This document shows, piece after piece, positions 10,538 through 56,840 of a stretch of DNA of 64,000 nt. A program made the translations under genes and the position numbers. Source of the DNA: an uncultured Gammaproteobacteria bacterium (GTDB lineage Bacteria; Patescibacteriota; Patescibacteriia; UBA9934; CAZDDW01); the NCBI GenBank assembly GCA_965231015.1, contig OZ246408.1, forward strand, positions 481,237 to 545,236. Direction: 5' to 3'. The notes under the pieces are model-generated. The model had not been told where the DNA came from, searched no databases, and saw only the letters and a list, made by a program, of their open reading frames with translations. Numbering within the stretch: the stretch's first letter is position 1; the number at the start of each line of letters is the position of its first letter.

Positions 10538-10562
10538 AAGCGACGCGCAACGTGTGATATAT

Positions 10563-29617: not shown

Positions 29618-29626
29618 CCAATCGTT

Positions 29627-29664: not shown

Positions 29665-29685
29665 GTGCGATATGCGATATGCGAT

Positions 29686-33384: not shown

Positions 33385-33413
33385 TATTTTCCGACACATA
33401 ATAAAACGACACA

Positions 33414-33439
33414 CCTCCCCGGGGTAGGGGAGGTTTTTT
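33414..33439 (+). terminator. Rho-independent terminator (CCTCCCCGGGGTAGGGGAGG + T6)
   Basis: A GC stem is followed by TTTTTT. Confidence 0.8.
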
Positions 33440-34044: not shown

Positions 34045-34527
34045 TTAATAGAACTTTAACGATTCTATTATTAAAAACATGTTGTCATTATATTCGTATC
34101 CAGAAAAGACAAACCAACCATGATCAGTCTCACGTATCACATGCGTCACTTCATTTGCTGCCGGATCCATTCCCGTTCCTACTAACCGAGTCATTTCAAC
34201 ATCATCAATCTTTGCTCCGTCTTTAGTTTCAACGTTCAGGTGTGACTCGATTAAACCGGTTGGATCGTCATCAGTGAAGACTTGCAGTGTCACAGTCTCG
34301 CTACTGGTTTTGTCATAAAACTTAATTAAACTGGCCGTGGCATCTTCTTCAAAATCCCAACCATTTGGAAATGAGAGTTCAAACGTTGTTTCGGTAAAGT
34401 CATTATTTATATAGAAAAGGCTTGAGTCAGATGGCTCGTATCGCGACACTCGAACTGGCTCGGCAGATGATTTACATCCACCCCCAAGTAAAATAAGGGC
34501 TAAACTAAAAAATATAATTTTTTTCAT
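34045..34527 (-). CDS. lipoprotein, hypothetical (signal peptide + lipobox LLGGGC)
   Basis: It begins MKKIIFFSLALILLGGGCKS. Confidence 0.65.
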   Translation of the reverse strand: MKKIIFFSLALILLGGGCKSSAEPVRVSRYEPSDSSLFYINNDFTETTFELSFPNGWDFEEDATASLIKFYDKTSSETVTLQVFTDDDPTGLIESHLNVETKDGAKIDDVEMTRLVGTGMDPAANEVTHVIRETDHGWFVFSGYEYNDNMFLIIESLKFY

Positions 34528-39449: not shown

Positions 39450-39843
39450 ATGATGTTTTGTAATTATCCGGTTGAAACGGTTTTAATCGCACCAGCTGAA
39501 TGTGCCTGTTTTGAGTTTTTGCTAGATACTGTTTTAGACTTTCGTAAAGTTCATCTTGATCATATCCAACAGCGATCACATCTGGTTTGACCTCCTCGAC
39601 GATCTTGAATTTTCCTCGTTGGCGATCTGACAGCCAAGCCTCATCTATGAGCGGGTAATCCTTCACTATCTGCAATCGTTCTTGCTCATCAAATTTGGGG
39701 GCCCTGTCCTTGGTTTCTCTTACATATCGATCTCGAGCAACACTAGCTATTAAATAGTCACCATGTTCTCGAGCTTCATGCATCATGGCAAAGTGCCCAG
39801 GGTGTAGCTCATCAAAGGTCCCAAAAATTAATACGCGGCTCAT
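39436..39843 (-). CDS. cytidylyltransferase-like nucleotidyltransferase (TagD/RibL-like, HxGH motif)
   Basis: The sequence RVLIFGTFDELHPGHFAMMHEAREHGDYLIASV matches the family. The protein is 135 aa. Confidence 0.7.
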   Translation of the reverse strand: MSRVLIFGTFDELHPGHFAMMHEAREHGDYLIASVARDRYVRETKDRAPKFDEQERLQIVKDYPLIDEAWLSDRQRGKFKIVEEVKPDVIAVGYDQDELYESLKQYLAKTQNRHIQLVRLKPFQPDNYKTSYARH

Positions 39844-42574: not shown

Positions 42575-43117
42575 TTAGTCCTCAATAATAGCTTGTAAGA
42601 CACTCGGCACTTCGGTTATCCCGGTATCATCGTCGTAATGACTCATGTCGTGATCGATTACGGTCGAGGCACCAAAGTGTTCTTTGGTGTAATTAGTACT
42701 GCTGGTTGGTATAAATGGATCGTTGTCAGAAAAGACCGATGATTTTTTTGGCTGAACTCGAGATCTTGGTGTCGTTGAAAGGTTGTTCAAGCCATGGGGC
42801 GATAAATTCGGGCATATCGTCAGTTAATCCGTTGATAATATCAACCGCCGGGACCACCAAAACAGCTTTGTTGATTTTATTCCTTCAAGTAGTCGCTCGA
42901 GGTATCGCGGCGCTGTTGCTCCACCCATGCTGTGGCCGACAATAATAACGTCTTCACTTGGTGTGCCGACAACCTGTTCAAGGTATGATACCCAAGCTTC
43001 CATGCGTGGATTATCCGAATCCGGCATGGAAAGAGATTCGACTTCGTAACCCTCGGCTTCGAGCTCACGCTTGAGCCATGGAAAAAAATGAGTTGTTGGA
43101 GCTCCCTTCCCAACCAT
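42575..43117 (-). pseudogene. frameshifted RBBP9/YdeN-family alpha/beta serine hydrolase
   Basis: The N-terminal part (42824..43117) has FPWLKRELEAEGYEV....IIVGHSMGG. The C-terminal part (42575..42790) is in another frame. The frameshift lies between them near 42800-42860. Confidence 0.6.
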
Positions 43118-43234
43118 GAACCAAGAATGCTTTTGGCATAAAATTTTGTTTATAGATTTAACCTTTTGGTTAGAAGATTATTCACTGGCACATTCGTGCG
43201 AATGTGAAAGTAAGATACTTGTTATTTAGTATAG

Positions 43235-43350
43235 TTGCTGTTAGGCGCTGTCGCGAGCGGAGCGAGCGGCAAAGCGCCGACAGTCGCAGCCCGTTATATT
43301 CCTCGAAGGGCTGAAATTCAGTGCAACGTCCCGAAGGGCTGGCGAGCGTA
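43235..43350. repeat. GC-rich repeat element R0 (partial; contains GTTAGGC and GTGCAACG modules)
   Basis: It shares sub-modules with R1/R2, such as agtgcaacg...cgaag and gttaggcg. Confidence 0.5.
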
Positions 43351-43366
43351 ATAAATACCATTAAAT

Positions 43367-43726
43367 TTATTGCAATTTCTTGAGCATTCTTTCAACTATT
43401 CTTTGAGCTTGTCTTCCGGCGGCAGCGTGTATAAGGTCAAACATATCTCTTGATAGTGCTTCACACTCTCCTGTTTTTGAATCGACTTTGTATCCGGTAA
43501 AATTTTCTGAAACATCTGATGTTTTTTCGATTTCTTGAAGAAAATCAATTAATTCAGATCGAGGAACACCGCCGCCTTGATCAGGATTTTGTTCTAAAAT
43601 TTTTCTTAATGCTTGAGCTCTTTCTGGACTAAAATGTTTTGTTAATTCAGATAACTCTGCCGTCTTTTCTTTTGCTTGTTCGGCAAGGTCTCTGAGCTCT
43701 GTTGGTTGTTCTGATCCTTTTTCCAT
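43367..43726 (-). CDS. hypothetical protein (119 aa)
   Basis: It is a clean ORF preceded by repeat R1, with no domain found. Confidence 0.5.
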   Translation of the reverse strand: MEKGSEQPTELRDLAEQAKEKTAELSELTKHFSPERAQALRKILEQNPDQGGGVPRSELIDFLQEIEKTSDVSENFTGYKVDSKTGECEALSRDMFDLIHAAAGRQAQRIVERMLKKLQ

Positions 43727-43754
43727 AAGTTATAAATTTAATGGTATTTATTAT

Positions 43755-44058
43755 GGCGTATAACGGCCGGCGGCTATGCGACGTGGTCCGGAGACGAGCT
43801 TGCTCGTCGACGGGCCATGTCCGCATAGCTGACTGTTGTGCGATGTCGCGTAGCGACGAGCGCAACAAAAGGCGTAGCCGCCGGCCGTTGTGGCGAAGGA
43901 GCGAAGCGATTTCGCCACAACGTTTGCGTGTATCTGATGTTTTGCGGAGCAAAATATGGGAGATCGAAGTGCAACGAGTGAACCGCATATGCTGTGTTAG
44001 GCGAGCCGAACGGAGTGATAGCGAAGTGAGAGTGCAACGTGCCTTTAGCGTATTTTTG
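43755..44058. repeat. GC-rich hairpin-rich repeat element R1 (core module A + module C)
   Basis: A ~170-bp core is nearly identical to R2 and R3: a 14-bp perfect inverted repeat ACGGCCGGCGGCTA...TAGCCGCCGGCCGT encloses ~90 nt, followed by the hairpin GTTGTGGCGAA..TTCGCCACAAC. Arg-rich ORFs inside it are artefacts of GC-richness. Confidence 0.8.
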
Positions 44059-44115
44059 AAAAAATTATCATTATTATTCTTTTGTTGTTGGTCTTTTTAT
44101 AATTGTTGATTGCTA

Positions 44116-44520
44116 TTAACCAAATACTGCAAAACCTTCCCCAAATACCCTTGATGAAACCGCACTTAATATGATAACGCCAACAAGTAATGTCACCATT
44201 ATAAAAATAACTTCTCCAAGAATAACTTTTTTATATAACTTACCCAGCTCACTCTCACACGTTTTTTTCAGAAATTCAGATAAAAATTTTTCTTTGAAGT
44301 AGAAATATAAACCTAATAATATAAATAAGGTTCCTACAAGTAAATTGATGACAAAACCAATGCGAGATAAATAAATACTACCAATGATAATCAATCCACT
44401 TGTTATCCAAAGAAAAATCGTCAAATAAGTTGCGAACTGTAATAATTTTAATTGTAAGTTATTTTTCATAATGTTTAGTCTGAATAAATTAATTTTTATA
44501 TACTCCAACAACAAAAACAT
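44116..44520 (-). CDS. hypothetical integral membrane protein (4 TM)
   Basis: Hydrophobic helices are present. The 5' end of the tracked ORF overlaps a repeat motif, so the start was trimmed. Confidence 0.45.
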   Translation of the reverse strand: MFLLLEYIKINLFRLNIMKNNLQLKLLQFATYLTIFLWITSGLIIIGSIYLSRIGFVINLLVGTLFILLGLYFYFKEKFLSEFLKKTCESELGKLYKKVILGEVIFIMVTLLVGVIILSAVSSRVFGEGFAVFG

Positions 44521-44815
44521 TTTAAAAACAAATTTTTCAAAAATATGTCGCCTAACGTTCAAGTATATGAGAAGTTTCGCACACTCCTTATTAAAATTCA
44601 ATAATGTGTGTGCGAAATTTGGGTAAAAGAAATTGCGCCCCCGCTAAAAGTTAAGAAGCGTAATTTCTTGAACCTCTTATACTTTGTTGTACGATGTTGG
44701 CTTTCCATTTTATTCGATTTTTTGGGGAGTTTTCGGTCGTTTGCAATTGACAGGCGGGGAGCAACTTGCTATTATTCAAAGTCGCAATTCCGCGACCAAC
44801 GAAGGAGGTTTATCA

Positions 44816-45102
44816 TGAGTGACAAGACGAAGAGGCGACCGGCACACGAGATCATCATGGGGATGATACACGAGGCGTACAGAGATCTGGCTTCTGCCGA
44901 TAAGGGGCAGGAAGAACGGCATGCTGTTCGGATTCAGACTCTGTGCCAGGTGATGACTGACATGTTCATCCCCGAGGAATTGATGCCTCAGCTGACCAAT
45001 CAGCTCGAAATGGCCACCCGAGTCCCCATCATCGCCGATGTGGCCTACCTGGTGCACGAGGACATTCAGCGTCTCATGGGCAGGCTCATGTACGACGAGT
45101 AG
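44816..45102 (+). CDS. GC-rich hypothetical protein (95 aa) with strong SD (AAGGAGG 8 nt upstream); only plus-strand gene in the island
   Basis: Its composition differs from its neighbours. There is an RBS, and start is MSDKTKRRPAHEIIMGMIHEAYRDL. Confidence 0.5.
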
Positions 45103-45221
45103 AACGCCCCGCCGCCATCCGCTTCACCAACCCCCGTTCGGACAACATGTCCAGCAGGGGTTCATTTTTTATAGAGAAAACTGCCCAAATAATTGAATTG
45201 GAAAAGAGAAAAATGGAAAGC

Positions 45222-45345
45222 CAATTTCGCCACAACGTTCCTGCGTATGCGATGTTTGCTAGTGGTATAATTGCACGAAGTGCTTACCACTGGCAAATAT
45301 GGGTGCAGTGAGGAGGAGGTACAACGACGAACGGAACCGCATATT
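45222..45345. repeat. partial repeat R2' (module B: hairpin CCAGTGGTATAATTGCACGAAGTGCTTACCACTGG)
   Basis: It is near-identical to the right half of R3. Confidence 0.7.
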
Positions 45346-45350
45346 CTTTG

Positions 45351-45899
45351 TTATATGATGTTTTTGTGTGACACGTCATTAAGATAAAACAATATTGCAA
45401 TCAATGATATACCGTCTGATATTTCCTTGTTTTCAATCAGTTCTTTGACTTTAGCAATAGAGAGCCAATGGATTTCATTGACTTCATCTGTATCAAAATC
45501 TATTTGTTTAGAACTATCAGCTTCACCAATAACTACATGTGTCGTTTGGTTTGACATTCCGTTTGAAGGATTGAAAGAATAATGGAGTTTTAATGCCTTC
45601 GTTCTAAACCCAGTTTCTTCTAGCACTTCGCGTTCAGCGGCTTTCAAAATATCCTCGCTTTTATCGATTCCACCGGCGGGTAATTCCCACTGAATCTGTT
45701 GGGTTGTATAGCGAAGTGCTTTTATGAAGCAAATGTCTTTTTTATCGTTGGTCAACAAAACGACTACAGAATCGTTTGGATAGTCTAAAAAATGGTATTT
45801 TTCAATAATTTTACCAGAAGGCATTAAAACCCTGTCTGTATAGAGGTTGATCCATTGGCTCTCGTAGATTGTTTTTCGCTCTAGTCTTTCAGGTAACAT
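45351..45899 (-). CDS. NUDIX hydrolase
   Basis: It carries the Nudix box GGIDKSEDILKAAEREVLEETGF. Confidence 0.85.
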   Translation of the reverse strand: MLPERLERKTIYESQWINLYTDRVLMPSGKIIEKYHFLDYPNDSVVVLLTNDKKDICFIKALRYTTQQIQWELPAGGIDKSEDILKAAEREVLEETGFRTKALKLHYSFNPSNGMSNQTTHVVIGEADSSKQIDFDTDEVNEIHWLSIAKVKELIENKEISDGISLIAILFYLNDVSHKNII

Positions 45900-45943
45900 A
45901 TCTTGATTGTATTAGTGTCACACAAAAATTTCACACAACGGCC

Positions 45944-46240
45944 GGCGGCTATGCGACGTGGTCCGGAGACGAGCTTACTCGTCGACGGGCCATGTCCGCA
46001 TAGCTGACTGTTGTGCGATGTCGCGTAGCGACGAGCGCAACAAAAGGCGTAGCCGCCGGCCGTTGTGGCGAAGGAGCGAAGCGATTTCGCCACAACGTTC
46101 GCGTATATCTGATGTTTTGCGGAGCGTAGCGGAGCAAAATATGGGAGAGCGACGGCAGGAGCGAACCAGATATACGCTGTTGTGCGAGGGTGAGCGACGA
46201 TAGGAGCGAAAGTGCAACGACCCCGAAGCGTATTTTTCAA
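45944..46240. repeat. GC-rich repeat element R2 (core module A + modules C and D)
   Basis: See R1. The core 45944..46115 is nearly identical. Confidence 0.8.
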
Positions 46241-46359
46241 TATTTTTTCATTCTTTATTATTTTGTTGAAGAATTTTATTATTATTTGGAATTTTTATTT
46301 TTTCGTTTTTCTTTTTCCAAGAGGGATTAGGGGTGAATTGGAAAAAGAAAAACACCTTA

Positions 46360-47840
46360 CTAAAAAAATCCTCTCATTTTCTCAATAGACTGTTTTAGCT
46401 GTTTTATATCGGGTTTTCCATTATCTTTTTGATGATGAATTTGATTTCTCAAAAATGTATGAATAGTTACTTCATTTTGATTTCCTTTCCATGGAGAATC
46501 TTTTGTTTCTTGTTTTTCACTTTGAAAATAATCTATATCAAATTTTTTGATTGCTTTAGTAATGGTTTCCTTTGTTCCGTCTTTTTTTTCTATTTCTTCT
46601 TGTCCATGTTTAAATATTAATTCTTCGTATAATTCGTTGTGATATTCTTCAGTTGCTAACCCAAAAGCAATAAAATTTACTTCGTTAGCTGAAACATATG
46701 GTAAAACTCTTTTTTCTAATTCTAAAATTTTTACTTCTTCATTTTCTTTCTCTAAGCAATGAATTTGAATTTTGCTATTGTCATTATTTAATGTTTGTTT
46801 AACAAAAAGTGGAGAGTGAGTAGAAAATAGAAATTGATTTTTTTCAGAAATTGAAACTATGTGGTTAATAAAATTATTTTGTAAATCTGGGTGCAAATGT
46901 AGTTCTGGCTCATCAATTAAAATCAAAATGTTTTCTTTTGAAATTTCTGCCATTGTTTCTAAAAATAATAAGGAAACAACCATTTCAACACCTGATCCAA
47001 GTTGAGATATCGGCAAATCTAAACTTTCTAATTTTTGAGAAAGAAAAGCACTATCAAAAGGTGCGTTACAATCAATTAGTGAAAGATCTGCTTTCGGTAA
47101 GCCGACTTTTTCAAGTTTTTCGTTTAATGTCTGAAATGTTTTTTGTTGTGATTTTTCGTCAATTTTTTCTAAAACGCTTGTTTCAAAATTATTTTTTTGA
47201 GTTGTAAATTTTTCTCCGTCAAAATCTTCCTTTGTTTCATTTTTTTTATTTCTTTATTAAATCTCCAATTAAAATCTTCAAAAACTGACGAAATGGAAGA
47301 ATTAAACCCTCTCTGTAATTGTTTTTCTCTGTTTTTTGGAAAATAAAAACTTTTTGGCAACCCTTCTGATTCCAAAGGAAAAGATAACTGTCTTTCATCA
47401 AATTTAAATTTTGTTCCTGTCCCTCTTGTTATCTCCCAGCCATTTTCATTATCTTTTTCTCTGTTTGGTAAAACATAATGAGACACAACAACAATATCTG
47501 AAAATGCTTTTTTAGGAGTTGCCCTATCTCTCTTTTTTATTTCCAAGCAAACTTTACTGCATTCAACATCTTGTTTAGTATAGCCGTCAGGTAAAAAGAT
47601 TTTAAAGTTTTCATTAAATTCTAAAATAATCTTTATTTCAACATCTTCGCCTTTATAAAAATCTGTATGTTTTATTCTTCCTGATAAAAAATAAGGAGAA
47701 AGACAAAAATTTATTGCTTCCAAAATAGAGGTTTTACTTGTTCCATTTTCACCAACAAGCAAAGAAAGATTTTTTAGTTCAAAATCTTTTAATTCTTTTA
47801 TGCCTCTAAAATTTTGGATTGTGATTGTCTTTATCTTCAT
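46360..47840 (-). pseudogene. AAA_21/ABC-like ATPase (OLD/RecF-type) disrupted by frameshift(s): N-part 47169..47840, C-part 46360..47016
   Basis: The N-terminal part has Walker A (LLVGENGTSKTSILEAINF). The C-terminal part has the signature and Walker B (SQLGSGVEMV...LILIDEPELHLHP...STHSPLF). The roughly 150-nt gap between them contains T8 homopolymers. Confidence 0.55.
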
Positions 47841-47860
47841 AACTTTTTTATTTAAAAAAT

Positions 47861-48943
47861 CTAAACTCCCACAAAATATCTATTCTCTTCTTTTGTGGCA
47901 AAAACTTTTTCTTCTTTTTTCTTGTGTATCGATTCTGTTTTTGGCGTTTGATTCATTTTTTCATTCTTCTGTATTCTTTTATTTCTGATTAAAATTCTAA
48001 AATATGGACATTTTCCATTTATAGACAAATCTTTTTCGTCATTTCCTTTTCTGAATTTAATTATTTCAAACTGATCTGGGTTGAATTTATGTAAAAAAGT
48101 TATCGGTACACCCATAACACCTGAATAATCCAAAGGAATATTTTGTGTTTTATTCACATTAATTCCATGATAATTATCATAATGAGGATACTCAGTTTCG
48201 TTTCCAAAATATTTCTTAGTAAGAGGAATATCTTCGTGTCTTTTAGAAGTATCTAAATTGGTGAGCCATAGACAATTATTTGGGGAGACTATTCTATTTC
48301 CAAAGTCATCAATACGGGCTTCTGTTCCATAAAGCTCATAATGTTCTGGAACAATAAAGCCTGAAATACCTCTACCTAGATTTATTCCTAACCACGCTTT
48401 ACTTCTCTTAATTAATTTAAAAATTTCTTTGTAGGTTATAGCATTAATATTGCCAATAATCAGAAATTTCTTATCATATTTAACCAATTGATCTACGTGC
48501 TCTCTAAATAATGAAAATGGTGGATTAGTAACAACTATATCGGATTGTTTTAATAACTGGATACTTTCCGCACTACGAAAGTCCCCATCCCCTTTAAAGT
48601 GAACAATATCATCTGAACTTGGCTTTGTTTTTTCATCTTGAGCACCTGTATATTCATAAAAAAATCCACATTCAGATACCTCAGTATTAAATAAATTTCT
48701 TTCTTGTTTTTTATAACAAGCCGCTATTAATTTTTTAAGTCCTAGCTCTTTGAAGTTTAAAGCAAAATAATGAAAAAAATTACTAATTTTTGGATCATCG
48801 CAATTACAAAAAACCACTTTGTTTTTAAAATGATCTTTATAATGTTGCAATTCGCTTTCTATATCTGAAAGTTGAGTGTAAAACTCATCACTTTTTGATT
48901 TTTTAGCTTTTTGCAGTAATGTATTTGTTGCATTTCTTGCCAT
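47861..48943 (-). CDS. N6-adenine DNA methyltransferase, M.EcoRI family
   Basis: The N-terminus MARNATNTLLQKAKKSKSDEFYTQ...VVFCNCDDP is near-identical to M.EcoRI as recalled. The NPPF motif is present (IVVTNPPFSLF), and the C-terminus reads GKCPYFRILIRNKRIQK. Confidence 0.85.
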   Translation of the reverse strand: MARNATNTLLQKAKKSKSDEFYTQLSDIESELQHYKDHFKNKVVFCNCDDPKISNFFHYFALNFKELGLKKLIAACYKKQERNLFNTEVSECGFFYEYTGAQDEKTKPSSDDIVHFKGDGDFRSAESIQLLKQSDIVVTNPPFSLFREHVDQLVKYDKKFLIIGNINAITYKEIFKLIKRSKAWLGINLGRGISGFIVPEHYELYGTEARIDDFGNRIVSPNNCLWLTNLDTSKRHEDIPLTKKYFGNETEYPHYDNYHGINVNKTQNIPLDYSGVMGVPITFLHKFNPDQFEIIKFRKGNDEKDLSINGKCPYFRILIRNKRIQKNEKMNQTPKTESIHKKKEEKVFATKEENRYFVGV

Positions 48944-48970
48944 AATCAAATTTTATAAATAAAATTTTAG

Positions 48971-49806
48971 TTATTTGCTCTTAGTTATCTGTTTAAATAT
49001 TTCACTTCCTAATACTTGAAGAGAGGTTTTTGAAATCTCAATCATAATGTTAAACATCTCTTTTGCATCCCATTTTTCTCCATTGCCTTGTGTATATATT
49101 GAAGTTGCCTGAAGCATAATTGTTTTATCTTTGTGTTTAACAAATTTATTTTTACACAGATTAGTATTAATTGGCATTCCATAATTTGCAGAGGTCAGCC
49201 TATCTAACCTATTTAACATTCCTGAATTGTATTCAAGTGTCACAACCCTTCCATCAGGTCTTTTAATTGAAATAGTTTCTGTTAAAAAATTTGACCCCTC
49301 CAAAAATAAGATATATGGAAAATGGGATTCATATAGCATAAAGTTGGCAATTTCTGATATGTTTTTATGTGATCTTTCTATCGCGTTACCGGCAGCCATC
49401 AAGTCTTGATTGTTGTTTATACCAACTTGATTTCCTTTCAGTATATTTTCAATGTCTTTCCCTTGATGTTTAGCCTCCGTTACAAGTAATACTCTCCAAT
49501 TATCGCTATCGTCTTTTACTTCTATTATTCCGCCATCAGGTTTAATGCTTGAATTTGATACAAAAATAGTTTGTCCTAACTCTGGATCAATTTTCTTTAA
49601 TGCTTCGTTTATTTCTTCCTTTTTTATGCTTGTTCTATATCTAAAAGATAATTGAGGAAATTCTTTTTCAAGTTGTTCAATTACAAGATGTGAAATTTTA
49701 CCAACACTTATATCATGCGATTTTGCGTTTTCTCCAAATATACCAACTACTCCGTGAGATTTTTATGCTGATTTGTTAATCTTTTAGATTGATTCTTTTT
49801 AGCCAT
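48971..49806 (-). pseudogene. EcoRI-family type II restriction endonuclease, N-terminal frameshift in T5/A5 run at 49760..49764
   Basis: The region downstream of the frameshift matches R.EcoRI closely: GVVGIFGENAKSHD, PQLSFRYRTSIKKEEINEALKKIDPELGQTIFVSNSSIKPDGGIIEVKDDSDNWRVLLVTEAKHQGKDI and QDLMAAGNAIERSHKNISEIANFML. The N-terminus MAKKNQSKRLTNQHKN is in the -1 frame; one extra A restores the full ORF. Confidence 0.8.
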
Positions 49807-49894
49807 ATTGTTTTTTGAATAAGTAAGGTGTCTTTATTATAGTGTTTTTTTATAAAAATTTAAAATTCATTTTTTGCGGAAGTATGAAGCAAAA

Positions 49895-49918
49895 AATACC
49901 ATATATCCCCCTCATTAA
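49895..49918 (-). promoter_or_regulatory. motif ATGAGGGGGATATATGGTA (minus sense) about 110 nt upstream of the EcoRI-like R start; related copies upstream of C gene
   Basis: The same about 19-nt motif occurs twice at 56629..56647 and 56681..56697. Confidence 0.4.
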
Positions 49919-49981
49919 AATAAAAATTCCATTCCTTTTTAAATTCTTCAACAAAATTCTTTATTTGAGAAAAAATATTGA

Positions 49982-50150
49982 AAAATATGTCGCACAACGT
50001 TAGGGCTATACGAAGTTTTTCGACCGAAGGGAGAAAAATTTGGAGAAATGGCGAGCCGAGCCATTTCTCGTATAGCCCTTGTTATACGAGGGTGAGCGAC
50101 CAACGGGAGCGAAAGCGCAGCGTCCCCTTGCGTATGACGCAGGCAGGCGA
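49982..50150. repeat. partial repeat R3' (modules sharing AAAAATATGTCGCNNAACGTT and GAGGGTGAGCGAC..GGAGCGAAAG with R2 and 44539..44600)
   Basis: The same sub-modules occur in R2 and at 44539..44600, as seen by eye. Confidence 0.5.
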
Positions 50151-50156
50151 TTTTCG

Positions 50157-50936
50157 TCAGTCCATCTTTTTCATTGGTTTATTGGGATCAACATTATCAT
50201 AATAAAAGTCAAAACCCAGCTCATCAAAAATATTCTCAAATTCTGTAAATACTTGTTCCACCACTTTCTGAAGTTTGGCAAAATTTTGGTACTCACCATT
50301 AATAATGATTTGGAGTAAGTCGTCAAAATGCTCAGGCTTCTTTTTGAATTTCTTTGCTTCTTCTATGAATTTTGCAAATGTTGTATAAGGCTTCTGATTT
50401 AGAAAAGTTAATGTTATTAACATGTAATTGCACATGTCAAATACCAAAAGGGAAATGCCAAGTTTGTTTTTTTTCGTGATAGCATTTAGAACTTTAGCAG
50501 TTGATTCTTGTAGGTCTCCGAAGTGATGAATGATCTGCTTGTGACACTTTTCTTTAAGGTTCTTAACTTTGTAATTGTTGAGACGATCTATAAAAGGTTT
50601 ATTGATGAGTGGAAGTAATTTATCAGAACCGGAAAGAAACCAATCAGGCGTGGGCTCTTTCACTGTTTTTATGTATGAGTCTTTAGTCATCCAAACCAGT
50701 TCAACCAGAAGACCATCACGGATTTTGCCCATGCCCGCCCAGGTTTTACCTCTTGGCATTTCCCGAACAAATGCAATTAACTCTAAATCAGAATAGCCAA
50801 AATCTTCGTTTCTAGCAAAAGAAGCCTGAGCCGCTAATGCAATAAGATTTTTGCCAAACTTCTTTTTGATAAGTGGAACAAGTTCTTTAACTACTTGCTC
50901 TCTTTCTTTATGAGAATATTTTTGTAGACCACGCAT
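50157..50936 (-). CDS. nucleotidyltransferase of the ANT(4')/KNTase/Lnu superfamily (NTase domain + KNTase_C-like helical domain)
   Basis: The sequence KEREQVVKELVPLIKKKFGKNLIALAAQASFARNEDFGYSDLELIAFV matches the pol-beta-type NTase motif ([GA]S...SD[LI]E[LM]). The protein is 259 aa. Confidence 0.6.
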   Translation of the reverse strand: MRGLQKYSHKEREQVVKELVPLIKKKFGKNLIALAAQASFARNEDFGYSDLELIAFVREMPRGKTWAGMGKIRDGLLVELVWMTKDSYIKTVKEPTPDWFLSGSDKLLPLINKPFIDRLNNYKVKNLKEKCHKQIIHHFGDLQESTAKVLNAITKKNKLGISLLVFDMCNYMLITLTFLNQKPYTTFAKFIEEAKKFKKKPEHFDDLLQIIINGEYQNFAKLQKVVEQVFTEFENIFDELGFDFYYDNVDPNKPMKKMD

Positions 50937-51014
50937 AGTGTTAGATAGTTTATATTAGTATATAAATATTGCTGGGTTTTGACCATCTTAGAAAATCGCC
51001 TGCCGAGTAATATT

Positions 51015-51300
51015 TCGTATAACGGCCGGCGGCTATGCGACGTGGTCCGGAGACGAGCTTACTCGTCGACGGGCCATGTCCGCATAGCTGACTGTTGTGC
51101 GATGTCGCGTAGCGACGAGCGCAACAAAAGGCGTAGCCGCCGGCCGTTGTGGCGAAGGAGCGAAGCGATTTCGCCACAACGTACCTGCGTATGCGATGTT
51201 TGCCAGTGGTATAATTGCACGAAGTGCTTACCACTGGCAAATATGGGTGGAGGCTTGCGGAGGTACGGAGCAAGCCGTAACCGCATACGCAGTGTTAGCT
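51015..51300. repeat. GC-rich repeat element R3 (core module A + module B)
   Basis: See R1. The core 51020..51185 is nearly identical. Confidence 0.8.
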
Positions 51301-51364
51301 GATGTATTCCTTTTCTTTTCGACGATAGTCGTTTGTTTTAAAAATTTTCAAATTTCTTTTTCCG

Positions 51365-51473
51365 TTTTGGGTGGTGGGCAGAGGGGAATTAAAGGGGTGA
51401 ATGCCCGCCACCCAAAACACCTATTTCTGTTTGAGGGAGGGGCAAGAGGGGAACAAAAGGGGTGAATTGCCCC
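51365..51473 (-). terminator. two tandem GC-rich hairpins directly after the Ppl-like gene stop, loops sharing GAGGGGAAYWAAAGGGGTGAAT
   Basis: Hairpin 1 is TTTTGGGTGGTGGGC..GCCCGCCACCCAAAA. Hairpin 2 is GGGGCAA..TTGCCCC. Both are flanked by A/T runs. Confidence 0.5.
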
Positions 51474-51486
51474 GACCGAAAACATG

Positions 51487-54339
51487 TTATTTGTTTAACA
51501 AATATTTCCTTTCTCGCTGTCTAAAGGCTTCCTCTCCACCTTCAAGAATATCTCTTATATTTTTGTTTATTTCTGGATTTTCAATACTGCCTGATAAATA
51601 GCCTAATTCTTGATCTAGCCTTGCTACGATTATTTGTTCGGCATCCGCATTAACTACTAGATTAGCGTTGTGGGTCGACATTATGATTTGTCTTGATTGT
51701 TTGGCCTTCCGGATGAGTGGGACAAGTTCATTCATTATGAAATTGTTATCAAGGTTGTCTTCAGGTTGATCTATAATGAAAACTTGTTTTGCCGTTGCAG
51801 TAGCTAAATAGACTTTTAGTAAAAGGGTTCCTCTTTGTCCGATAGATAAAATTTCAGTTGCCTTTCCATTTAACTTTGCAATTGCTTTTACTCCCAAGAA
51901 GTCAGCCCATTCAGTGAAAATGTAATATGTGATTCCGCTGATTCCATCACGACTAAAACATTTTTGTTCGCCTAGGTCAGTTTTTTGTATCCATACTGAT
52001 AGATTCTCAAAGGTTATTTCTCGGGGCGTTCCGTCTTCATTTGTGCCAGCTATCATTTTTTTCAGATCAGTTTCATTTGCTACTTTCCGGTTATCCAGAA
52101 AATCATCCAATACACGCTTAGCAAACTTTTTGAAATTAAATTCAATTTTTCCCTCAACTTCAATGCCATTGATAATTTTTTCGAATAGTTCCTTCTCTTC
52201 GGCTGTTGAATCATCGCGTGAATTTTGAAAATCTTTAAATGCTTGTGTGATGGCATTTCGTAGGGCAAGTAATGAATTACTGATTTGTTCCAAGATTTTT
52301 CTTTTCTCCTCATGCAAGTCCACCAATTGTGTTATTGACCGATTGTAATTCTCAAGATCTTTTCCAATGTTGCTTATTTGGCGTTGTAAATTTTCACTGG
52401 CCTGTAATAAGGTATTAACATCTTCCTTAATACCCTGTTCAATAAGTTTCTTTTTTAGAGCAATGATTTCTTCTCTCAATTTAGTCATATCTGCCTCAAT
52501 TTTTGTCTGTAATTCGCTAAGTACTTTTGTCTGTTTGCTGATATTTAGACCCTCAATCTCTTCGTTGTCGGGGTAGTGGTTTTTTAGAATAATGTTGAAG
52601 TTGGCTATTTCTTGTGTGATTGGCAATTCACGAAGGCCTAGCAGTAGTGTGTTTGCTTTTTCTTTCAACTCTTTAAGCTTAAGTCCTTTTTCAGTTTTTT
52701 TATTTATTTCATCAAGTGTCTCCTTTGTTTCTTTTGATGAGAGTCTTTTTTGTTGGTCTGTAAGTTTTGCTAAATAGCTTGCTATCCATTTTTCCAAGTC
52801 TTCGCCCTCGGTATATCCAAGCTCTTTATACCGTTCAATAATGTCTCGGGTACGTTGCTGGGTATTATCAATATCACCAAGTACATCTCGTGCTTTTGAA
52901 GTTAAAACTTCTTGGCCTATTTCGTTAACGTCAATGCCAATCAAATCGCAAACAGTTCGTGTTAGTTCAAAATCATTTGTTGCAATACCGCTTAGCCTTT
53001 CTTGTCCTAGGTACAAAAATGGTAATTCAAGATTTGTTTTATCCGAAAGTTCCTTCTCAAATTCAGACATATCACCATCTTTATCTATCAATGAAGTTTT
53101 GAATGTATAAGAAGGACGTGGCTCTGTTCTTGCTTCATTATCTCTATAATATTCAATAATCTTTTTCTTATTGTTTTGATCTAATTTTAAATGTTCCTCA
53201 TTAAGAAAAGCGAAAGTATCAAGCAGAGCACTTTTTCCACTTCCTCTACCGCCAATTAATGCTATAAGCTCTCTATTTAATAGTATTTCTAAGTCAGGCA
53301 AAACAAAATTTTTACTTCCAGTTAGTTTTATTGAATCAAAATATATTTTCTTTTTTTCTTCGTATGGGTTCTGTTCTTGAATTTTTACTCTTTCCGAAGG
53401 TTCAAATAGTAATTGTTTCAGCCCGTCAAATGTTGGGTTGGATTTAATCCATGTATATCTTTTATTGTCTGGTTCAAATAACTTTTCGTAGGTGTGGGAA
53501 TCTGACCCCCAAATGCATGGTTTAAGGCTTTTAAATTCATTAATGTATTCTTGGGGATTCTCATGCTTTCTTCCAAGACCCCAATTTATCGTAGCTTGAT
53601 TTGAACTGATAAGTACATCAGATTTTTGAATATAAATTTTTCTTACATTATGATCTTGTCCATCCCAAGAAATTTTACTTAAATCTTCATCAGAAGGTAC
53701 ACACATCATATACATGCCTGCAAATTTCGATTTCTTATTAGTTAGTATTTCTGCTATCTGAGTGTGATTTACTACCGCACACTTCATGCCGACAAATAAG
53801 TCAGTATCTGAGTTAAACTCTGCGTGCTCTTTCTTTAGACTTTGACCCAACGTTTCAAGGTTGGGAATTTTTAATTTCCATTTTTCATCAGTGCCTTGAG
53901 GATTTCCTTCATAAATAAAATCTAATTCGTGGAGGAAATTTTCTTCAATATCTGTAATTAAAACTTCATCTGAAAAAATCACATGAAAATTTACTCGGTT
54001 ACCATCTACTAACGTATCAAGGCGAAATTCTACATTTGGGAACAGTTTTATTTTTTTAATTTGCTTAATTTCTTTATCCGTAAATAGTTCAGCAAGCTTG
54101 GTGTCATTATTCAGGTACTCCTGCTTTATCTTCTTATATCCTTCAATGCAGAAGTAATCAGTAATTCCTATAACCGCTATCTGCTTTTCAATGGCAGCTT
54201 TAAAAAGCTTTTTAACATATTCATCGAAGTCATCGCCAAAGCCATTACTTAAATGCGAAAAGGGAGTATGAACCTGTAAATCCCATTTTCTCCAAATCGA
54301 CCCCCTTTGAAACTGATTGTATTTAACTTCGTCAGACAT
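51487..54339 (-). CDS. PHP-domain phosphoesterase fused to SMC/ABC-type ATPase with coiled-coil (Ppl-like single-gene defence candidate)
   Basis: The N-terminal PHP motifs are WDLQVHTPFSH, NVEFRL, NFHVIF and GSDSH. Walker A is LIGGRGSGKSALLDTF, followed by a long coiled-coil middle. The C-terminus has Walker B/D-loop FIIDQPEDNLD and H-loop MSTHN. Confidence 0.7.
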   Translation of the reverse strand: MSDEVKYNQFQRGSIWRKWDLQVHTPFSHLSNGFGDDFDEYVKKLFKAAIEKQIAVIGITDYFCIEGYKKIKQEYLNNDTKLAELFTDKEIKQIKKIKLFPNVEFRLDTLVDGNRVNFHVIFSDEVLITDIEENFLHELDFIYEGNPQGTDEKWKLKIPNLETLGQSLKKEHAEFNSDTDLFVGMKCAVVNHTQIAEILTNKKSKFAGMYMMCVPSDEDLSKISWDGQDHNVRKIYIQKSDVLISSNQATINWGLGRKHENPQEYINEFKSLKPCIWGSDSHTYEKLFEPDNKRYTWIKSNPTFDGLKQLLFEPSERVKIQEQNPYEEKKKIYFDSIKLTGSKNFVLPDLEILLNRELIALIGGRGSGKSALLDTFAFLNEEHLKLDQNNKKKIIEYYRDNEARTEPRPSYTFKTSLIDKDGDMSEFEKELSDKTNLELPFLYLGQERLSGIATNDFELTRTVCDLIGIDVNEIGQEVLTSKARDVLGDIDNTQQRTRDIIERYKELGYTEGEDLEKWIASYLAKLTDQQKRLSSKETKETLDEINKKTEKGLKLKELKEKANTLLLGLRELPITQEIANFNIILKNHYPDNEEIEGLNISKQTKVLSELQTKIEADMTKLREEIIALKKKLIEQGIKEDVNTLLQASENLQRQISNIGKDLENYNRSITQLVDLHEEKRKILEQISNSLLALRNAITQAFKDFQNSRDDSTAEEKELFEKIINGIEVEGKIEFNFKKFAKRVLDDFLDNRKVANETDLKKMIAGTNEDGTPREITFENLSVWIQKTDLGEQKCFSRDGISGITYYIFTEWADFLGVKAIAKLNGKATEILSIGQRGTLLLKVYLATATAKQVFIIDQPEDNLDNNFIMNELVPLIRKAKQSRQIIMSTHNANLVVNADAEQIIVARLDQELGYLSGSIENPEINKNIRDILEGGEEAFRQRERKYLLNK

Positions 54340-54342
54340 AAA

Positions 54343-55419
54343 CTATTTGATAAATCGTATTTGCAGGTTGAGTTTGATAAACATTTCGCCGTTTTCTTCG
54401 TAAACTGTGCCGTATCCGTGGCGTGTTGCACTTGGTGATTCCATGCGAGTGTTATTAAACAAGTAATTTCGAAACGCTTCCGCATTATAAAGATGATAAC
54501 AAACGATTTCGCCGTCTTCACGAACCACAATCACTCCACCGTGGGCACGCAAGGTACCGTCCCATGCACTGGCGGGAACCATTCCGAGAGCTGCATTATT
54601 GAGTAATGCTTTGATTTTGTAGGCGTAGTCTTCGGTGGAAAGTTTGAAATTCAAAATTTGCATTTTTTCATCTTGCAAGTGTTGCAATAATTCCGGGAAA
54701 GTTGCGCCTTTGTCAGAGAAATAAGCCAAAAGAACTTCCGCCATTATTTCTGGCATGATCGTGTCGATTTTTCGTAAGTTTCGCTCGAAAACTTCGGAAT
54801 CAATGCCGTGAAACGCAAACGCTCCGCCCGCTTCACGAATTGCGAAAAGGCGATCACGAATTTTTGCCTTTGTATCAATTGTATTTATTTCTTCAATTTT
54901 TCGTTCATCAAGTCCTGTGATTTTGTATGTAAAGTTAGTTGCTCCCGAAGCGTTGAGAAGTGTTGCGGGTGAACCGAGTTTTGATTTGATACTGAATCCT
55001 ATTTCGTGATCTCGTCCGATCGTGTGATCATGGACTTTCAAAATCAAATCTTCTTTCCGTGCATTTCCGGCATTGAGGGTTTTTATTCCAAAGCGTTCAA
55101 AAAGTTCGTCCGCAAGTGGGACGGAAAAGGTTTGTGATTTTTCTTTAATCTCCGCAAATACTTCAACGACTTTCGATTTCAAATCGGAGGTGTCTACGAT
55201 TGTGGTTTCGCCGTCAATGTGCAAGATTTTCACTTTTTCTCCTTCTTGCAATTCGTATTCCGATTTCCCCTCGGTCTCCTCACGGATTATTTTCAAAATT
55301 GGAAAAAAGACCGCTTCGATTTTTTCGAGTTCTTCATCAGCTCCGATGATTTTTTTATCGACGAGAAGTTTTATAAAAGCATAAAACTCGCTCCATTCGC
55401 CTTTATTTCCTGTGATCAT
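54343..55419 (-). CDS. type II restriction endonuclease candidate (HpaII-like family by N-terminal GNKGEWSE.Y...KLL pattern; assignment tentative)
   Basis: It lies immediately downstream of, and 3'-overlapping, a C5-MTase in a C-M-R arrangement. Motifs GNKGEWSEFYAFIKLL and SIKSKLGSPATLLNASGATNFTYKI are present. Confidence 0.5.
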   Translation of the reverse strand: MITGNKGEWSEFYAFIKLLVDKKIIGADEELEKIEAVFFPILKIIREETEGKSEYELQEGEKVKILHIDGETTIVDTSDLKSKVVEVFAEIKEKSQTFSVPLADELFERFGIKTLNAGNARKEDLILKVHDHTIGRDHEIGFSIKSKLGSPATLLNASGATNFTYKITGLDERKIEEINTIDTKAKIRDRLFAIREAGGAFAFHGIDSEVFERNLRKIDTIMPEIMAEVLLAYFSDKGATFPELLQHLQDEKMQILNFKLSTEDYAYKIKALLNNAALGMVPASAWDGTLRAHGGVIVVREDGEIVCYHLYNAEAFRNYLFNNTRMESPSATRHGYGTVYEENGEMFIKLNLQIRFIK

Positions 55420-56320
55420 AAGTATTGAGTGATTGGATAATTTGTTGAGCGACCGCTTGAATGGCAGTAACCGCAACCGCATTTCCCAGTTGCTTCATTG
55501 CTTTCATGTCTGAAACTGGAAATTCAAAATCATCGGGGAAGCCCATCATTTTTTTACCTTCAACCGGTGAAAGTCGTTTTACTTTTCCTTTTACCATGTA
55601 TGAATCCCAGTTATGGCGATCATCAATTTTTGATCCTCGTCCACCAACACGAAGTGTATATCCGATTTTCTTTTCGCAAGGTGCGCCCCAAATGTCGGAC
55701 ATGGTTTTTTCGAGTTTGATTGGTTCCGGAAATTCAAATTTTATATTTGGATCTTTGAATCCGACCATAAATAGACGGGGTCGGTGTTGCGGAAGCCCAA
55801 AATCGGACGCTTTAACTATTTTGTAATGGAATGAATAGCCAAGATCATCGGTTATTGTTTTTTTAATAACTTCAAAAGTTTTTCCGTCGTCGTGATTCAA
55901 CAAGTGTCGAACATTTTCCAAAAAGAAAGCCGTCGGTTGTTTTTCTTTGATGATTCTTACTATGTCATGAAAAAGTGTTCCGCGAGTATCTGAAAAACCT
56001 TTTCTAAAGCCGGCTTGTGAGAATGGCTGACAAGGAAAACCACCCGTCAAAATATCAAAGTCGGGGATTTCTTTTTCATCTACCTTGGTAATGTCGCCTG
56101 CAAATAATTCTTTTCCTTCCGCAAAAAGGCCTTTTTTGAAAAGCTCAGGTTGGATTTTTTTGAAATTATGCTCGTATGTTTGGCGTGCGTGTTCGTCCCA
56201 TTCACTTACAAAAACGCATTTTGCACCCGCATTGTGAAAAGCCAAATGAAAACCACCTATTCCAGCGAACAGGTCAATGAAAGTGATTTCCCGTTTTTTC
56301 TTTTGAGTTTTCGCTTTCAT
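55403..56320 (-). CDS. DNA (cytosine-5)-methyltransferase (Dcm/HhaI-type, short TRD)
   Basis: Motif I is DLFAGIGGFHLAF, motif IV is GGFPCQPFSQAG, motif VI is FFLENV and motif X is QLGNAVAV. Confidence 0.9.
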   Translation of the reverse strand: MKAKTQKKKREITFIDLFAGIGGFHLAFHNAGAKCVFVSEWDEHARQTYEHNFKKIQPELFKKGLFAEGKELFAGDITKVDEKEIPDFDILTGGFPCQPFSQAGFRKGFSDTRGTLFHDIVRIIKEKQPTAFFLENVRHLLNHDDGKTFEVIKKTITDDLGYSFHYKIVKASDFGLPQHRPRLFMVGFKDPNIKFEFPEPIKLEKTMSDIWGAPCEKKIGYTLRVGGRGSKIDDRHNWDSYMVKGKVKRLSPVEGKKMMGFPDDFEFPVSDMKAMKQLGNAVAVTAIQAVAQQIIQSLNTYDHRK

Positions 56321-56322
56321 AG

Positions 56323-56532
56323 TTATTTTATTAAGTCGTTAATGTCCACTTCAAGTGCTTGCGCAATTTTTGTCATTGTTTCGATTGTTGGGTTTCCGTT
56401 GTTTCCTGATTCTAAAGTAACAATTGTATTGAGTGCGACATCAGCAAGTTTTGATAGTCGGTCTTGCGATATCCCTTTTTCGGTACGGATCTTTTTTAAG
56501 TTCTTACCTATGTTTGCAATGTTTGGTTTCAT
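56323..56532 (-). CDS. XRE-family HTH protein, R-M controller (C) protein candidate
   Basis: The sequence is MKPNIANIGKNLKKIRTEKGISQDRLSKLADVALNTIVTLESGNNGNPTIETMTKIAQALEVDINDLIK. It lies directly upstream of the MTase. The start was set at an internal ATG. Confidence 0.7.
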   Translation of the reverse strand: MKPNIANIGKNLKKIRTEKGISQDRLSKLADVALNTIVTLESGNNGNPTIETMTKIAQALEVDINDLIK

Positions 56533-56609
56533 ATACCAGTAGAATGTAATAGTTACACTGGTTGTATTGTATCGTGTCTGAAATGCTTGGTCAATTCTTA
56601 TAAATAAAT

Positions 56610-56705
56610 GTTCCGCCGACAGGCGGAACTCCATATATTCCCCTCATCAAAAAAGCGTTTCCGTAGCTTTGCGGAGGAAACACCATATTTCCCCTTATAA
56701 AAAAG
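56610..56705. promoter_or_regulatory. two tandem units of [GC hairpin + CCATATWTCCCCT motif] upstream of the C gene
   Basis: Unit 1 is GTTCCGCC gaca GGCGGAAC + tccatatattcccctcat. Unit 2 is GTTTCCG tagctttg CGGAGGAAAC + accatatttcccctta. Confidence 0.45.
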
Positions 56706-56840
56706 AAAAAGAAATTTGAAAATTTTTTAAAACAATTGGGCGATAGCCCAGAAAAGAAAAGGAATATTTCAGCTAACTCGTTTATATGTGAAGTAAAGTT
56801 CGGATAAAGTATGGATTTAAGATAATATCCGATCCTAATC

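Follow-up and report, generated by a model that had tools for sequence, protein, structure and literature searches.

Integrons are defined by a specialised integrase insertion that reads the extrahelical bases of attC sites, and the polarity of these sites is set by extrahelical bases together with an unpaired spacer. To our knowledge, nearly all known integrons come from Proteobacteria-like lineages, with Archaea a recent addition. Here we describe a 13.5-kb array of seven gene cassettes in a 64-kb stretch of a ~1-Mb Patescibacteria genome (contig OZ246408.1, positions 481,237 to 545,236; hereafter the window, to which coordinates refer unless another contig is named). With a probability of roughly six in ten, it is read as an orphan array, without a recombinase, that belongs to a Patescibacterial system of integron-like cassettes. 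No description of integron-like arrays, or of an association between recombinase and array, in Patescibacteria or the candidate phyla radiation (CPR) was found in the open-access literature.

The array resembles sedentary chromosomal integrons (SCIs) and clusters of attC sites lacking integron-integrases (CALINs) in being compact and unidirectional, with sites that appear to be recognised by structure, have few invariant bases and fold on the strand opposite the open reading frames (ORFs). Each cassette start is complementary to the end box, the cargo consists of defence, restriction-modification (R-M) and small unknown genes, arrays at related loci diverge from a tyrosine recombinase of the Xer/IntI clan and end at a conserved junction, and the orphan state is itself CALIN-like. 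Unlike in integrons, families of cassette arms recur across unrelated cargo, cassettes and sites reassort independently, and the host is a Patescibacterium. With the Acinetobacter dif modules (pdif, XerC/XerD) the system shares a Xer-type recombinase, bounds that are inverse half-sites, two alternating unit types, ATTTC-NNNN-AA ends resembling the XerC arm ATTTCGTATAA, and the lack of a dedicated transposase in the array; unlike these modules, it has no intact 28-bp duplex, carries folded, covarying hairpins between the half-sites, and forms chromosomal arrays beside a recombinase gene, with one recombinase type seen. GC-rich imperfect intergenic palindromes, nested insertions, near-identical copies and assembly breaks are also features of repetitive extragenic palindromes (REPs), bacterial interspersed mosaic elements (BIMEs) and repeats like miniature inverted-repeat transposable elements (MITEs). 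Unlike those, the present units are array-confined, in a single orientation, boundary-exact and present as one set per gene junction, with a tyrosine recombinase instead of a REP-associated tyrosine transposase (RAYT) or other transposase. Single-Xer systems (XerA/dif and the 'Cand' subgroup) are matched by a recombinase at the cutoff of model NF040815, with 4a8e as closest solved structure, and differ in that here the gene heads a cassette array with a conserved junction. The array is regarded here as an integron-like cassette platform whose recombinase subtype and site both differ from those of integrons.

The array spans positions 43240-56777. Cassettes (c1-c7, six of them with minus-strand ORFs) are separated by GC-rich units, all in the same orientation on the + strand, of three types termed U1, U2 and U3; a short insert, the T module, lies inside some cassettes. 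Bit scores are from R1, a covariance model built from 11 U3 sites, and labels L001-L018 denote other contigs or unitigs. The features along the array are as follows.

43240-43292, + strand: distal array end: GTTAGGC, then a GC-rich hairpin (GCGCTGTCGC...GCGACAGTCGC; one bulged base)
43293-43764, minus strand: c1, 119-aa ORF; ends GTTATAT ... GTATAAC
43765-43886, + strand: U1 copy 1
43887-43921, + strand: U2 copy 1
43922-43995, + strand: U3 site G2, mosaic and weakly folding; R1 68.3 bits, fold z-score -0.56
43996-44556, minus strand: c2, membrane protein; ends GTTAGGC ... GCCTAAC, arms of ~41-52 nt, T module
44557-44685, + strand: U3 site G3a; R1 95.3 bits, DNA fold z-score -5.95
44686-45236, + strand: c3, 95-aa ORF; ends GTTGTAC ... 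GCCACAAC
45237-45349, + strand: U3 site G3b; R1 105.7 bits, a mosaic with a 5' half of G6 type and a hairpin c of L006b type
45350-45939, minus strand: c4, NUDIX; ends GTTATATGATG ... TTTCACACAAC, 25-nt arms
45940-46061 and 46062-46096, + strand: U1 copy 2 and U2 copy 2
46097-46178, + strand: U3 site G4; R1 86 bits
46179-49998, minus strand: c5, split ATPase, EcoRI M and frameshifted EcoRI R; ends GTTGTGC ... GCACAAC
49999-50080, + strand: U3 site G5; R1 67.2 bits, fold z-score -5.84
50081-51023, minus strand: c6, KNTase_C nucleotidyltransferase (NTase); ends GTTATAC ... GTATAAC, T module at 50090-50131
51024-51145 and 51146-51180, + strand: U1 copy 3 and U2 copy 3
51181-51293, + strand: U3 site G6, the best-folding copy; R1 114.2 bits, 96% identical to an L006 site
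51294-56777, minus strand: c7, 5.5 kb, with Ppl, HpaII-type restriction endonuclease (REase), C5 methyltransferase (MTase) and C protein
56778-56795, + strand: attI-like array-end junction AAC|TCGTTTATATGTG, read as AGCTAAC|TCGTTTATATGTG at 56771-56790

On the + strand, each cassette has GTT-NNNN as its left bound and NNNN-AAC as its right bound, with mutually complementary tetranucleotides. The complementarity runs inward for 22 to ~100 nt, in arms that are private to each cassette. For five of the seven gene blocks of the island the best inverted-repeat score was 42-85, against a mean of 17.5 and a maximum of 30 for a control set of 35 other genes in the window; the NUDIX cassette scored 30, anchored at its boundary, and the arms of the NTase cassette are broken up by an insert. 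The arms of c1 (43349-43370 and 43732-53) are 22 nt long and 100% complementary, next to a T module at 43300-43348; those of c5 extend for ~70-100 nt and are interrupted by a T module at 46188-46229; and those of c7, the ends of which read GTTAGCTGATGTAT... and ...ATATTTCAGCTAAC, extend for ~80 nt. A fixed asymmetry marks the ends, with GATGT(AT) at the left set against GAAAT or GACAT in the reverse complement of the right, and this mismatch is present in every cassette of the window and of the related loci. The distal array end is atypical in having GTT at both sides; a comparable hairpin start adjoins the NTase cassette in L006. Separately, a hairpin with covarying stems and the conserved loop AGAGGGGAAnnAAAGGGGTGAAT was seen just 3' of the stop codons of large cargo genes (window 46300-46350 and 51356-51484; L003 1-47; L006 4080-4136; L018 ~3120-3159 and ~5270-5316). 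It belongs to a shared arm family, with a complementary GAGGGGAAATATGG motif in the opposite arm.

The six U3 sites of the window are 74-129 nt long and form three-way junctions. At the base AAC pairs with GTT, followed by an invariant G·T pair, a 3-nt bulge on the 5' side only and a 10-bp stem a. Stem b begins GA[T/A]GTTT / AAA[A/T]AT and holds a second, nearly invariant G·T, and stem c is closed by the GG/CC of a conserved TGGG...GAACC; the conserved motifs are GATGTTT, AAATATGGG and GAACC. A consensus structure was derived with RNAalifold from a MAFFT alignment of 11 sites (the six window sites and five from other contigs), and a 23-site alignment was fitted to the model, including nine L018 sites absent from training. 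Paired cells amounted to 94.5% in the 11-site and 96.2% in the 23-site alignment. Double-change cells numbered 43 with 11 sites, against 15.4 in shuffles (0 of 500 shuffles reached 43), and 109 with 23 sites; the covariation score was 0.407 with 11 sites, against at most 0.096 for slid controls, and 0.486 with 23. AAC/GTT and the adjacent G·T are invariant in all 23 sites.

The pairing is also biased by strand. G·T cells outnumber A·C cells on the + strand by 30:1, or 9:1 without the two invariant columns, and the + strand is the more stable in 6/6 window U3 sites. In six of the seven cassettes the coding strand is the opposite one, so that the + strand corresponds to what integron usage calls the 'bottom strand'. 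Among the attC sites of integrons, 5'-AAC-3' is the sole conserved sequence and the point of cleavage on the folded bottom strand (PMC5027507); U3 likewise has AAC/GTT at the base of the folded site and favours the bottom strand. Across the window, R1 matched the six array sites only, all on the + strand.

The gaps had been described, in a reading made from the sequence alone (the sequence-only reading), as filled by one GC-rich repeat family. The repeats are real, and they resolve into the three nested types U1, U2 and U3 plus the T module of ~45 nt. As plain repeats they appear as a 189-nt family (three copies, 93-98% identity) and a 99-nt family (two copies); the motif GTTNNNNGATGT occurs six times in the 64 kb, always in the island and on the + strand, and the motifs GGAGCGAA, GTGCAACG and CGCCACAAC are likewise confined to the island. 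U1 (three copies of 122 nt) is a nested GC-rich hairpin with the outer stem GGCCGGCGGCTATGC / GCGTAGCCGCCGGCC, containing a site-like hairpin plus a 32-nt ORF-less GTT...AAC mini-unit; a short ancestral form, the 23-nt hairpin GGCGGCGCC-CGATA-GGCGCCGCC, is found in L004, and the copy in L002 is ~90% identical with compensatory changes. U2 (three copies of 35 nt) is ORF-less, reads GTTGTGGCGAA-GGAGCGAAGCGAT-TTCGCCACAAC and is formally an empty cassette; across L002, L003 and L004 its stem covaries and its loop is conserved. The 93-98% identity of the three U1-U2 copies within the window suggests recent duplication or gene conversion. The T module holds a fixed position directly after GTTNNNNGA in four window cassettes and in L012, L013 and L018, and is missing from the NTase cassette as found in L006; because its ends do not complement each other, it was ruled out as an empty cassette. 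Rfam searches returned no family match in 40-60 kb at E<=1, and at the gathering threshold only a tRNA-Leu in the whole window; the repeats are not a known RNA.

For related arrays, the U1 stem pattern was scanned against a genome collection (the species of the window itself lying outside the representative set) and the U2 pattern against metagenomes. One contig, L002, was returned by the former and two short contigs only by the latter; all contigs from the two scans (L002-L004) share the same architecture. L002, from a soil Patescibacteria metagenome-assembled genome (MAG), contains U1-U2-U3 and a gene for a 276-aa tyrosine recombinase, divergent from the cassette ORFs and ~300 nt from the last unit. 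This protein scored 220.3 against the NCBIfam XerA/'integron integrase' model NF040815 (cutoff 220) and 178.7 against TIGR02249, below the cutoff of 265. It is about equally close to Pyrococcus XerA (135.3 bits) and Vibrio IntI4/VchIntIA (131.7 bits), and the best solved relative of the array-linked recombinase is Pyrococcus XerA (4a8e). Aligned to VchIntIA, it gives two separate segments, with IntI4 residues ~207-247 (the integron-specific insertion of ~40 aa) left out between them; an IntI-specific domain was found neither in the window nor in the array-linked L002 recombinase. As a side observation, a ~130-nt GC-rich non-coding stretch lies between the terminator of a bL25-like gene and the first cassette in L003 (700-830, minus strand).

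Further loci (L011, L012, L013 and L018) were picked by similarity of the recombinase protein alone, with identities of 57, 60, 56 and 54%, respectively. All four of these homologues with upstream DNA, like L002, have divergent cassettes and an AAC|T[AC]G..TAT junction. L011, L012 and L013 hold one cassette each, with GTT.../...ATTTC-NNNN-AAC ends; between the recombinase start and the junction AAC|T[AC]G[TA]GG[GA]TAT, where this cassette ends, lie 70-100 nt. L018, a 145-kb NCBI contig, has twelve ORFs, all divergent from the recombinase. R1 matched it nine times, at 33-90 bits and with E-values as low as 3e-21; each gap holds a single match, and every match is on the same strand. Private inverted repeats again mark the cassettes, the T module recurs, and the c7-type arm family surrounds a Na/Ca exchanger. 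The array ends at the junction CCTATAAC|TAGTTTATATCTTG, 169 nt before the recombinase ATG, with housekeeping genes on the other side; the gene nearest the attI-like junction of this complete array encodes an rve-family insertion sequence transposase (8998-9831).

The junction is thus shared by the window, L002, L011, L012, L013 and L018, and in the latter five lies 70-300 nt upstream of the recombinase start. These related loci have the attI-like site next to a divergent recombinase gene, and the window keeps the junction only, which is followed by 63 nt to the mrdA stop codon, with no recombinase gene there. Given the same junction at the array end and no adjacent recombinase, the window is therefore taken to carry an orphan array with an intact proximal end. 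The contigs of two more distant recombinase homologues, L009 and L010, begin 84-97 nt upstream of the gene and are uninformative on arrays. In L010, small minus-strand ORFs 3' of the recombinase homologue (1300-4000) are punctuated by a different GC-rich motif, TAGCGGCGAGCGG, which may be another site type in another lineage. A palindromic pair, TTGAGCGCTC ... TTAAGCGCTTTT, is conserved directly 5' of the recombinase start codon (L010 40-85, L012 640-685) and may be an operator.

Exchange at the level of single cassettes is indicated by cassette c6, which is 91% identical over 920 nt in L006-L008, from three other samples. There the NTase has different neighbours on both sides, its order relative to the cassette of a ~950-aa gene is reversed, and the T module is missing. 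In L006, this ~950-aa cassette has ~100-nt arms on either side and a preceding U3 site that are 81-96% identical to those of window c7. It was ruled out that L006 holds the same Ppl cassette, its 948-aa protein being unrelated to the window Ppl. The c7 arm family is common to unrelated cargo in L006, L018 and L003, and the arms being alike around unrelated proteins, arm families therefore carry different cargo. Several U3 sites are mosaics of halves found elsewhere. The complementarity of a cassette start to its own end, as known from integron cassettes, is seen in greatly extended form; the linkage of one cassette to one site is not conserved, as shown by the NTase in the window and in L006 and by the mosaic U3 sites.

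On one side the array is flanked by a split Ser_hydrolase gene and greA, and on the other by mrdA-mreDCB. The named relatives of the window MrdA are Candidatus Uhrbacteria and Patescibacteria, and relatives with the same synteny were available in L014, L016 and L017, of which L016 and L017 are Uhrbacteria MAGs. In the closest, L014 (MrdA 87% identical), the order is mreBCD-mrdA, one APH-like kinase, an intact hydrolase, greA and lysS; the hydrolase, split across two frames in the window (42575-43117), is there an intact 187-aa orthologue (9256-9819). The mrdA-hydrolase interval in L016 and L017 holds two other small genes. No repeat units occur in the intervals of any of these relatives, and R1 found no match in 65 kb of syntenic DNA; therefore the 13.5-kb array is, on comparison of these sequences, an insertion into a conserved and locally variable mrdA/hydrolase-greA interval. 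The sequence-only reading had placed the island between greA and the PBP2-mreBCD cluster, next to a frameshifted hydrolase, and the flanks are as it described; the comparison it proposed with the same interval in related genomes yields L014, L016 and L017 as relatives without the array. It had also seen no intI, transposase or tRNA at the edges, with which the tRNA search and tblastn agree: no tRNA was found at the island edges or elsewhere in the island, and no transposase is present in it.

Island genes had been called AT-rich like the host; they are in fact more AT-rich, at 25-38% GC against ~44% for the host backbone, with the gaps at 50-56% and the island at 35% overall. Logan short-read unitigs, which are independent, are consistent with the window sequence and come to an end at repeats: L001 stops in U1 (window 43786), and L005 corresponds to window 51276-56750, with cassette c7 alone as a stand-alone 5.5-kb contig. 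Mis-assembly of the array is unlikely because these independent unitigs match the window and merely stop at repeats. Such arrays are probably under-represented or fragmented in MAGs.

Elsewhere in the window, gene orientation converges and the GC-skew sign flips at 33400-34045, a 650-nt non-coding stretch that contains an inverted repeat, ATGTTAGACGACGCTTAATAAA / TTTATTAAGCGTTTGTCTAACAT, at ~33589-33660. A replication terminus may lie here, ~9 kb from the array; GC skew is confounded with gene strand and was dropped as a terminus marker. A second, unrelated intergenic hairpin repeat (76% identity; motif GTCGCAAATCGCT.GTCGT..GAAACGAC.TGCGAC) lies between housekeeping genes at 10487-10560 and 29614-29687, and the genome therefore has other palindromic repeat families. 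At 39840-41927, a 695-aa protein joins a lysyl-tRNA synthetase to an HD domain at its C terminus, a fusion kept in L014, L016 and L017.

Gene calls for the cargo were made from Pfam and PADLOC searches, with the following results.

56323-56634, minus strand: helix-turn-helix (HTH) C protein (Pfam)
55403-56320, minus strand: C5 MTase (Pfam DNA_methylase, 1.6e-85)
54343-55482, minus strand: HpaII-type REase (Pfam RE_HpaII, 1.2e-112)
51487-54339, minus strand: Ppl, 950 aa (PADLOC 3.6e-30; faint Pfam PHP, SMC_N and AAA_21)
50157-50936, minus strand: KNTase_C NTase (Pfam)
Within c5, minus strand: EcoRI R, with a single early frameshift after about codon 19 (Pfam EcoRI, 4.3e-83)
47861-48949, minus strand: EcoRI M (Pfam EcoRI_methylase, 2.2e-130)
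46360-47016 and 47169-47840, minus strand: AriA/PtuA/GajA-like ATPase in two parts
45351-45899, minus strand: NUDIX (Pfam)
44116-44469, minus strand: small membrane protein with 3-4 transmembrane segments
43367-43726, minus strand: 119-aa ORF with no Pfam match
44815-45102, + strand: 95-aa ORF, 54% GC, the sole plus-strand ORF

The 950-aa product matches the Ppl organisation, in which a PHP domain at the N terminus and an ABC/SMC-like ATPase are joined in one large protein. The cargo also includes two type II R-M systems, one with HpaII-like REase, MTase and C protein, the other with EcoRI-like R and M, the R gene being frameshifted. Every gene named in the sequence-only description of a defence island was borne out by Pfam and PADLOC; the defence-system prediction it had proposed for the proteins gives Ppl with PADLOC, and its count of all genes but one on the minus strand holds, the exception being the ORF at 44815-45102. 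This c3 ORF has its own TTGACA-17-TATTAT promoter-like site, ribosome-binding site and terminator, and L011 and L006 contain similar cassettes, with a GC-rich ORF on the plus strand and related right ends. Promoter and terminator scans gave counts not above chance (terminator-like sites, 14 vs 11.2).

The sequence-only reading had likened the layout to an integron cassette array, a resemblance now supported by the complementary ends, the folded sites, the relatives without the array, the reused cassette and the recombinase junction. Several observations nevertheless weigh against an orphan integron-like array. The loci compared number only ~10, and tblastn with three recombinase homologues over the 64 kb found no tyrosine recombinase at the edges or in the window. 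The array-linked recombinases (~270 aa) lack the ~40-aa IntI insertion and belong to an abundant Xer-like family of candidate phyla with 7300 matches; the Xer-like 'Cand' subgroup of Smyshlyaev et al. (2021), which covers this family, is presumed to act as a chromosome-dimer resolvase (PMC8138268). Because the family is generic, abundant and a presumed dimer resolvase, the adjacency of recombinase and array could have another cause. Unlike attC, U3 combines a 3-nt bulge on one side with an uninterrupted 10-bp stem and a three-way junction, and the sites do not fit the attC model R2 described below; two of the six window U3 sites fold poorly. Private 22-100-nt inverted repeats with a fixed mismatch, ORF-less U1 and U2 units and T modules also set the array apart from integrons. 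The NTase has different sites on both sides in its two contexts, which breaks the rule that a cassette keeps its own site, and its end tetranucleotides differ between contexts yet stay complementary. Finally, two cargo genes (EcoRI R and the ATPase) are disrupted, and because of these frameshifts the array may be decaying.

The most serious rival is a duplex mechanism of the Xer/dif-module type, or one like that of integrative mobile elements exploiting Xer (IMEX), in which a housekeeping Xer recombines duplex dif-like half-sites and the hairpins are incidental. The Xer-like recombinase, module ends that are inverted half-sites, and two unit kinds alternating like C and D modules all fit it, as does the possible terminus 9 kb away; the pattern at right ends is ATTTC-NNNN-AA, which at c6 takes the form ATTTCGTATAA, the very sequence of a pdif XerC arm in PMC13141974, and the attI-like junction can be written as an 11-5/6-11 pseudo-dif (ATTTCCTATAA-CTAGT-TTATATCTTGC in L018). 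It is judged unlikely, since the 28-bp XerC-spacer-XerD duplex expected at every boundary is not found: internal junctions have no complete 11-6-11 duplex site, the half-sites lying 23-190 nt apart with structured DNA between them. As the half-sites are never adjacent, a duplex dif-like reading of the internal junctions was ruled out. The covariation and the 30:1 G·T bias show selection on a single folded strand, and gene orientation in L018 diverges at the recombinase, origin-like rather than terminus-like. Selfish nested palindromes of the REP/BIME/MITE kind, which would have colonised the spacers of a defence island assembled otherwise and would not move genes, are a poorer account still and quite improbable. 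Such elements would explain GC-rich imperfect palindromes, the nesting of U1, three near-identical copies and the gain or loss of small inserts such as the T module, and another intergenic hairpin family does exist elsewhere in the genome. However, within the 64 kb all copies are in the array, on one strand and exactly at GTT/AAC boundaries, with no target site duplications (TSDs) at unit boundaries; cassette ends are mutually complementary; in five loci an array of this architecture adjoins a recombinase gene at a conserved junction; and no transposase, signature of terminal inverted repeats plus TSD, or RAYT was seen. The MITE-punctuated hotspot offered earlier as an alternative accordingly finds no support within the window, where sites are array-only, in one orientation and present as one set per junction.

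That the array is a canonical integron remnant, a CALIN with ordinary attC sites and a true IntI encoded elsewhere, is very unlikely. AAC...GTT bounds, boxes resembling RYYYAAC/GTTRRRY (GCCTAAC/GTTAGGC), unidirectional cassettes and defence or accessory cargo speak for it, and SCI attC sites may have branched terminal structures (PMC5027507). R2, a home-made covariance model of 11 class-1 attC sites only, recovers all attCs in seven plasmid integrons at 46-73 bits; under default filters it gave no match at E<=10 in either the window or the Patescibacteria loci, and when the filters were turned off the island yielded nothing but noise (<=7 bits, E>=5). Reciprocally, R1 had no match in class-1 integron loci. 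By this home-made model and the consensus structure, the R and L boxes, central spacer and extrahelical bases of attC are not seen: U3 lacks a 5-6-nt two-sided central spacer and an L box with extrahelical bases, and the array-linked recombinase lacks IntI residues ~207-247 and falls short of TIGR02249 (178.7 vs 265). Least credible, and highly improbable, is a role of the structures as RNA (terminators, mRNA-stabilising 5'/3' pairing or antisense RNAs) rather than as recombination sites. Covariation with G·U-type pairs is typical of RNA too, and cassette ends could pair within an mRNA; however, the G·T strand is antisense to six of the seven cargo ORFs, so that the mRNA would carry C·A mismatches at two invariant positions, Rfam gives no match, terminator-like sites are not above chance, and cassette reassortment and the recombinase junction are left unexplained.

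For the orphan integron-like array we propose the following mechanism. Two kinds of unit alternate, namely cassettes of the form GTT-NNNN-GATGT...cargo...ATTTC-NNNN-AAC and folded sites (U3, or the simpler or nested U1). A 'Cand'-type recombinase of the Xer/IntI clan, ~270 aa and without the IntI insertion, would perform the exchange and is presumably encoded elsewhere in the genome. It would recognise the + strand site in folded form and exchange strands at the AAC/GTT triplets, circular cassettes being inserted at the attI-like junction AAC|T[AC]G..TAT beside the recombinase gene. In a circularised cassette the private arms would lengthen an R-box-like stem by tens of base pairs. Polarity would come from three sources of asymmetry: the conserved mismatch GATGT/GAAAT, the bulge of 3 nt and both G·T pairs. 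The long palindromes at cassette ends may indicate how genes come to be packaged as cassettes. The window array would either have been seeded immediately downstream of mrdA or have been left stranded there when the recombinase gene was lost; it runs in the same direction as the mre-mrdA operon, and transcription may read through from mrdA. It stockpiles defence genes (Ppl, two type II R-M systems and an AriA/PtuA-like ATPase) plus small accessory genes, may still be mobile, and could be stabilised by its two R-M systems, like toxin-antitoxin cassettes in large integrons. A wider proposition, held tentatively and at a little short of even odds, is that Patescibacteria own a cassette-capture system built on a plain Xer-type recombinase, ancestral to integrons or independent of them, with each of the two unit kinds exchanged on its own at AAC/GTT.

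The hypothesis can be tested directly on existing metagenomes with the U3 covariance model and the junction motif. If true, it would give ultra-small, host-dependent Patescibacteria a gene-capture platform made of a plain Xer-like recombinase and a different folded site, and would account for recurrent assembly breaks and missing accessory genes in CPR MAGs. The site and enzyme would form a new structure-specific pair for engineering. The system would also offer an intermediate or a parallel for the origin of integrons from Xer systems, and for the way in which ORFs become cassettes, and it would show how 1-Mb genomes keep a flexible, exchangeable defence repertoire.

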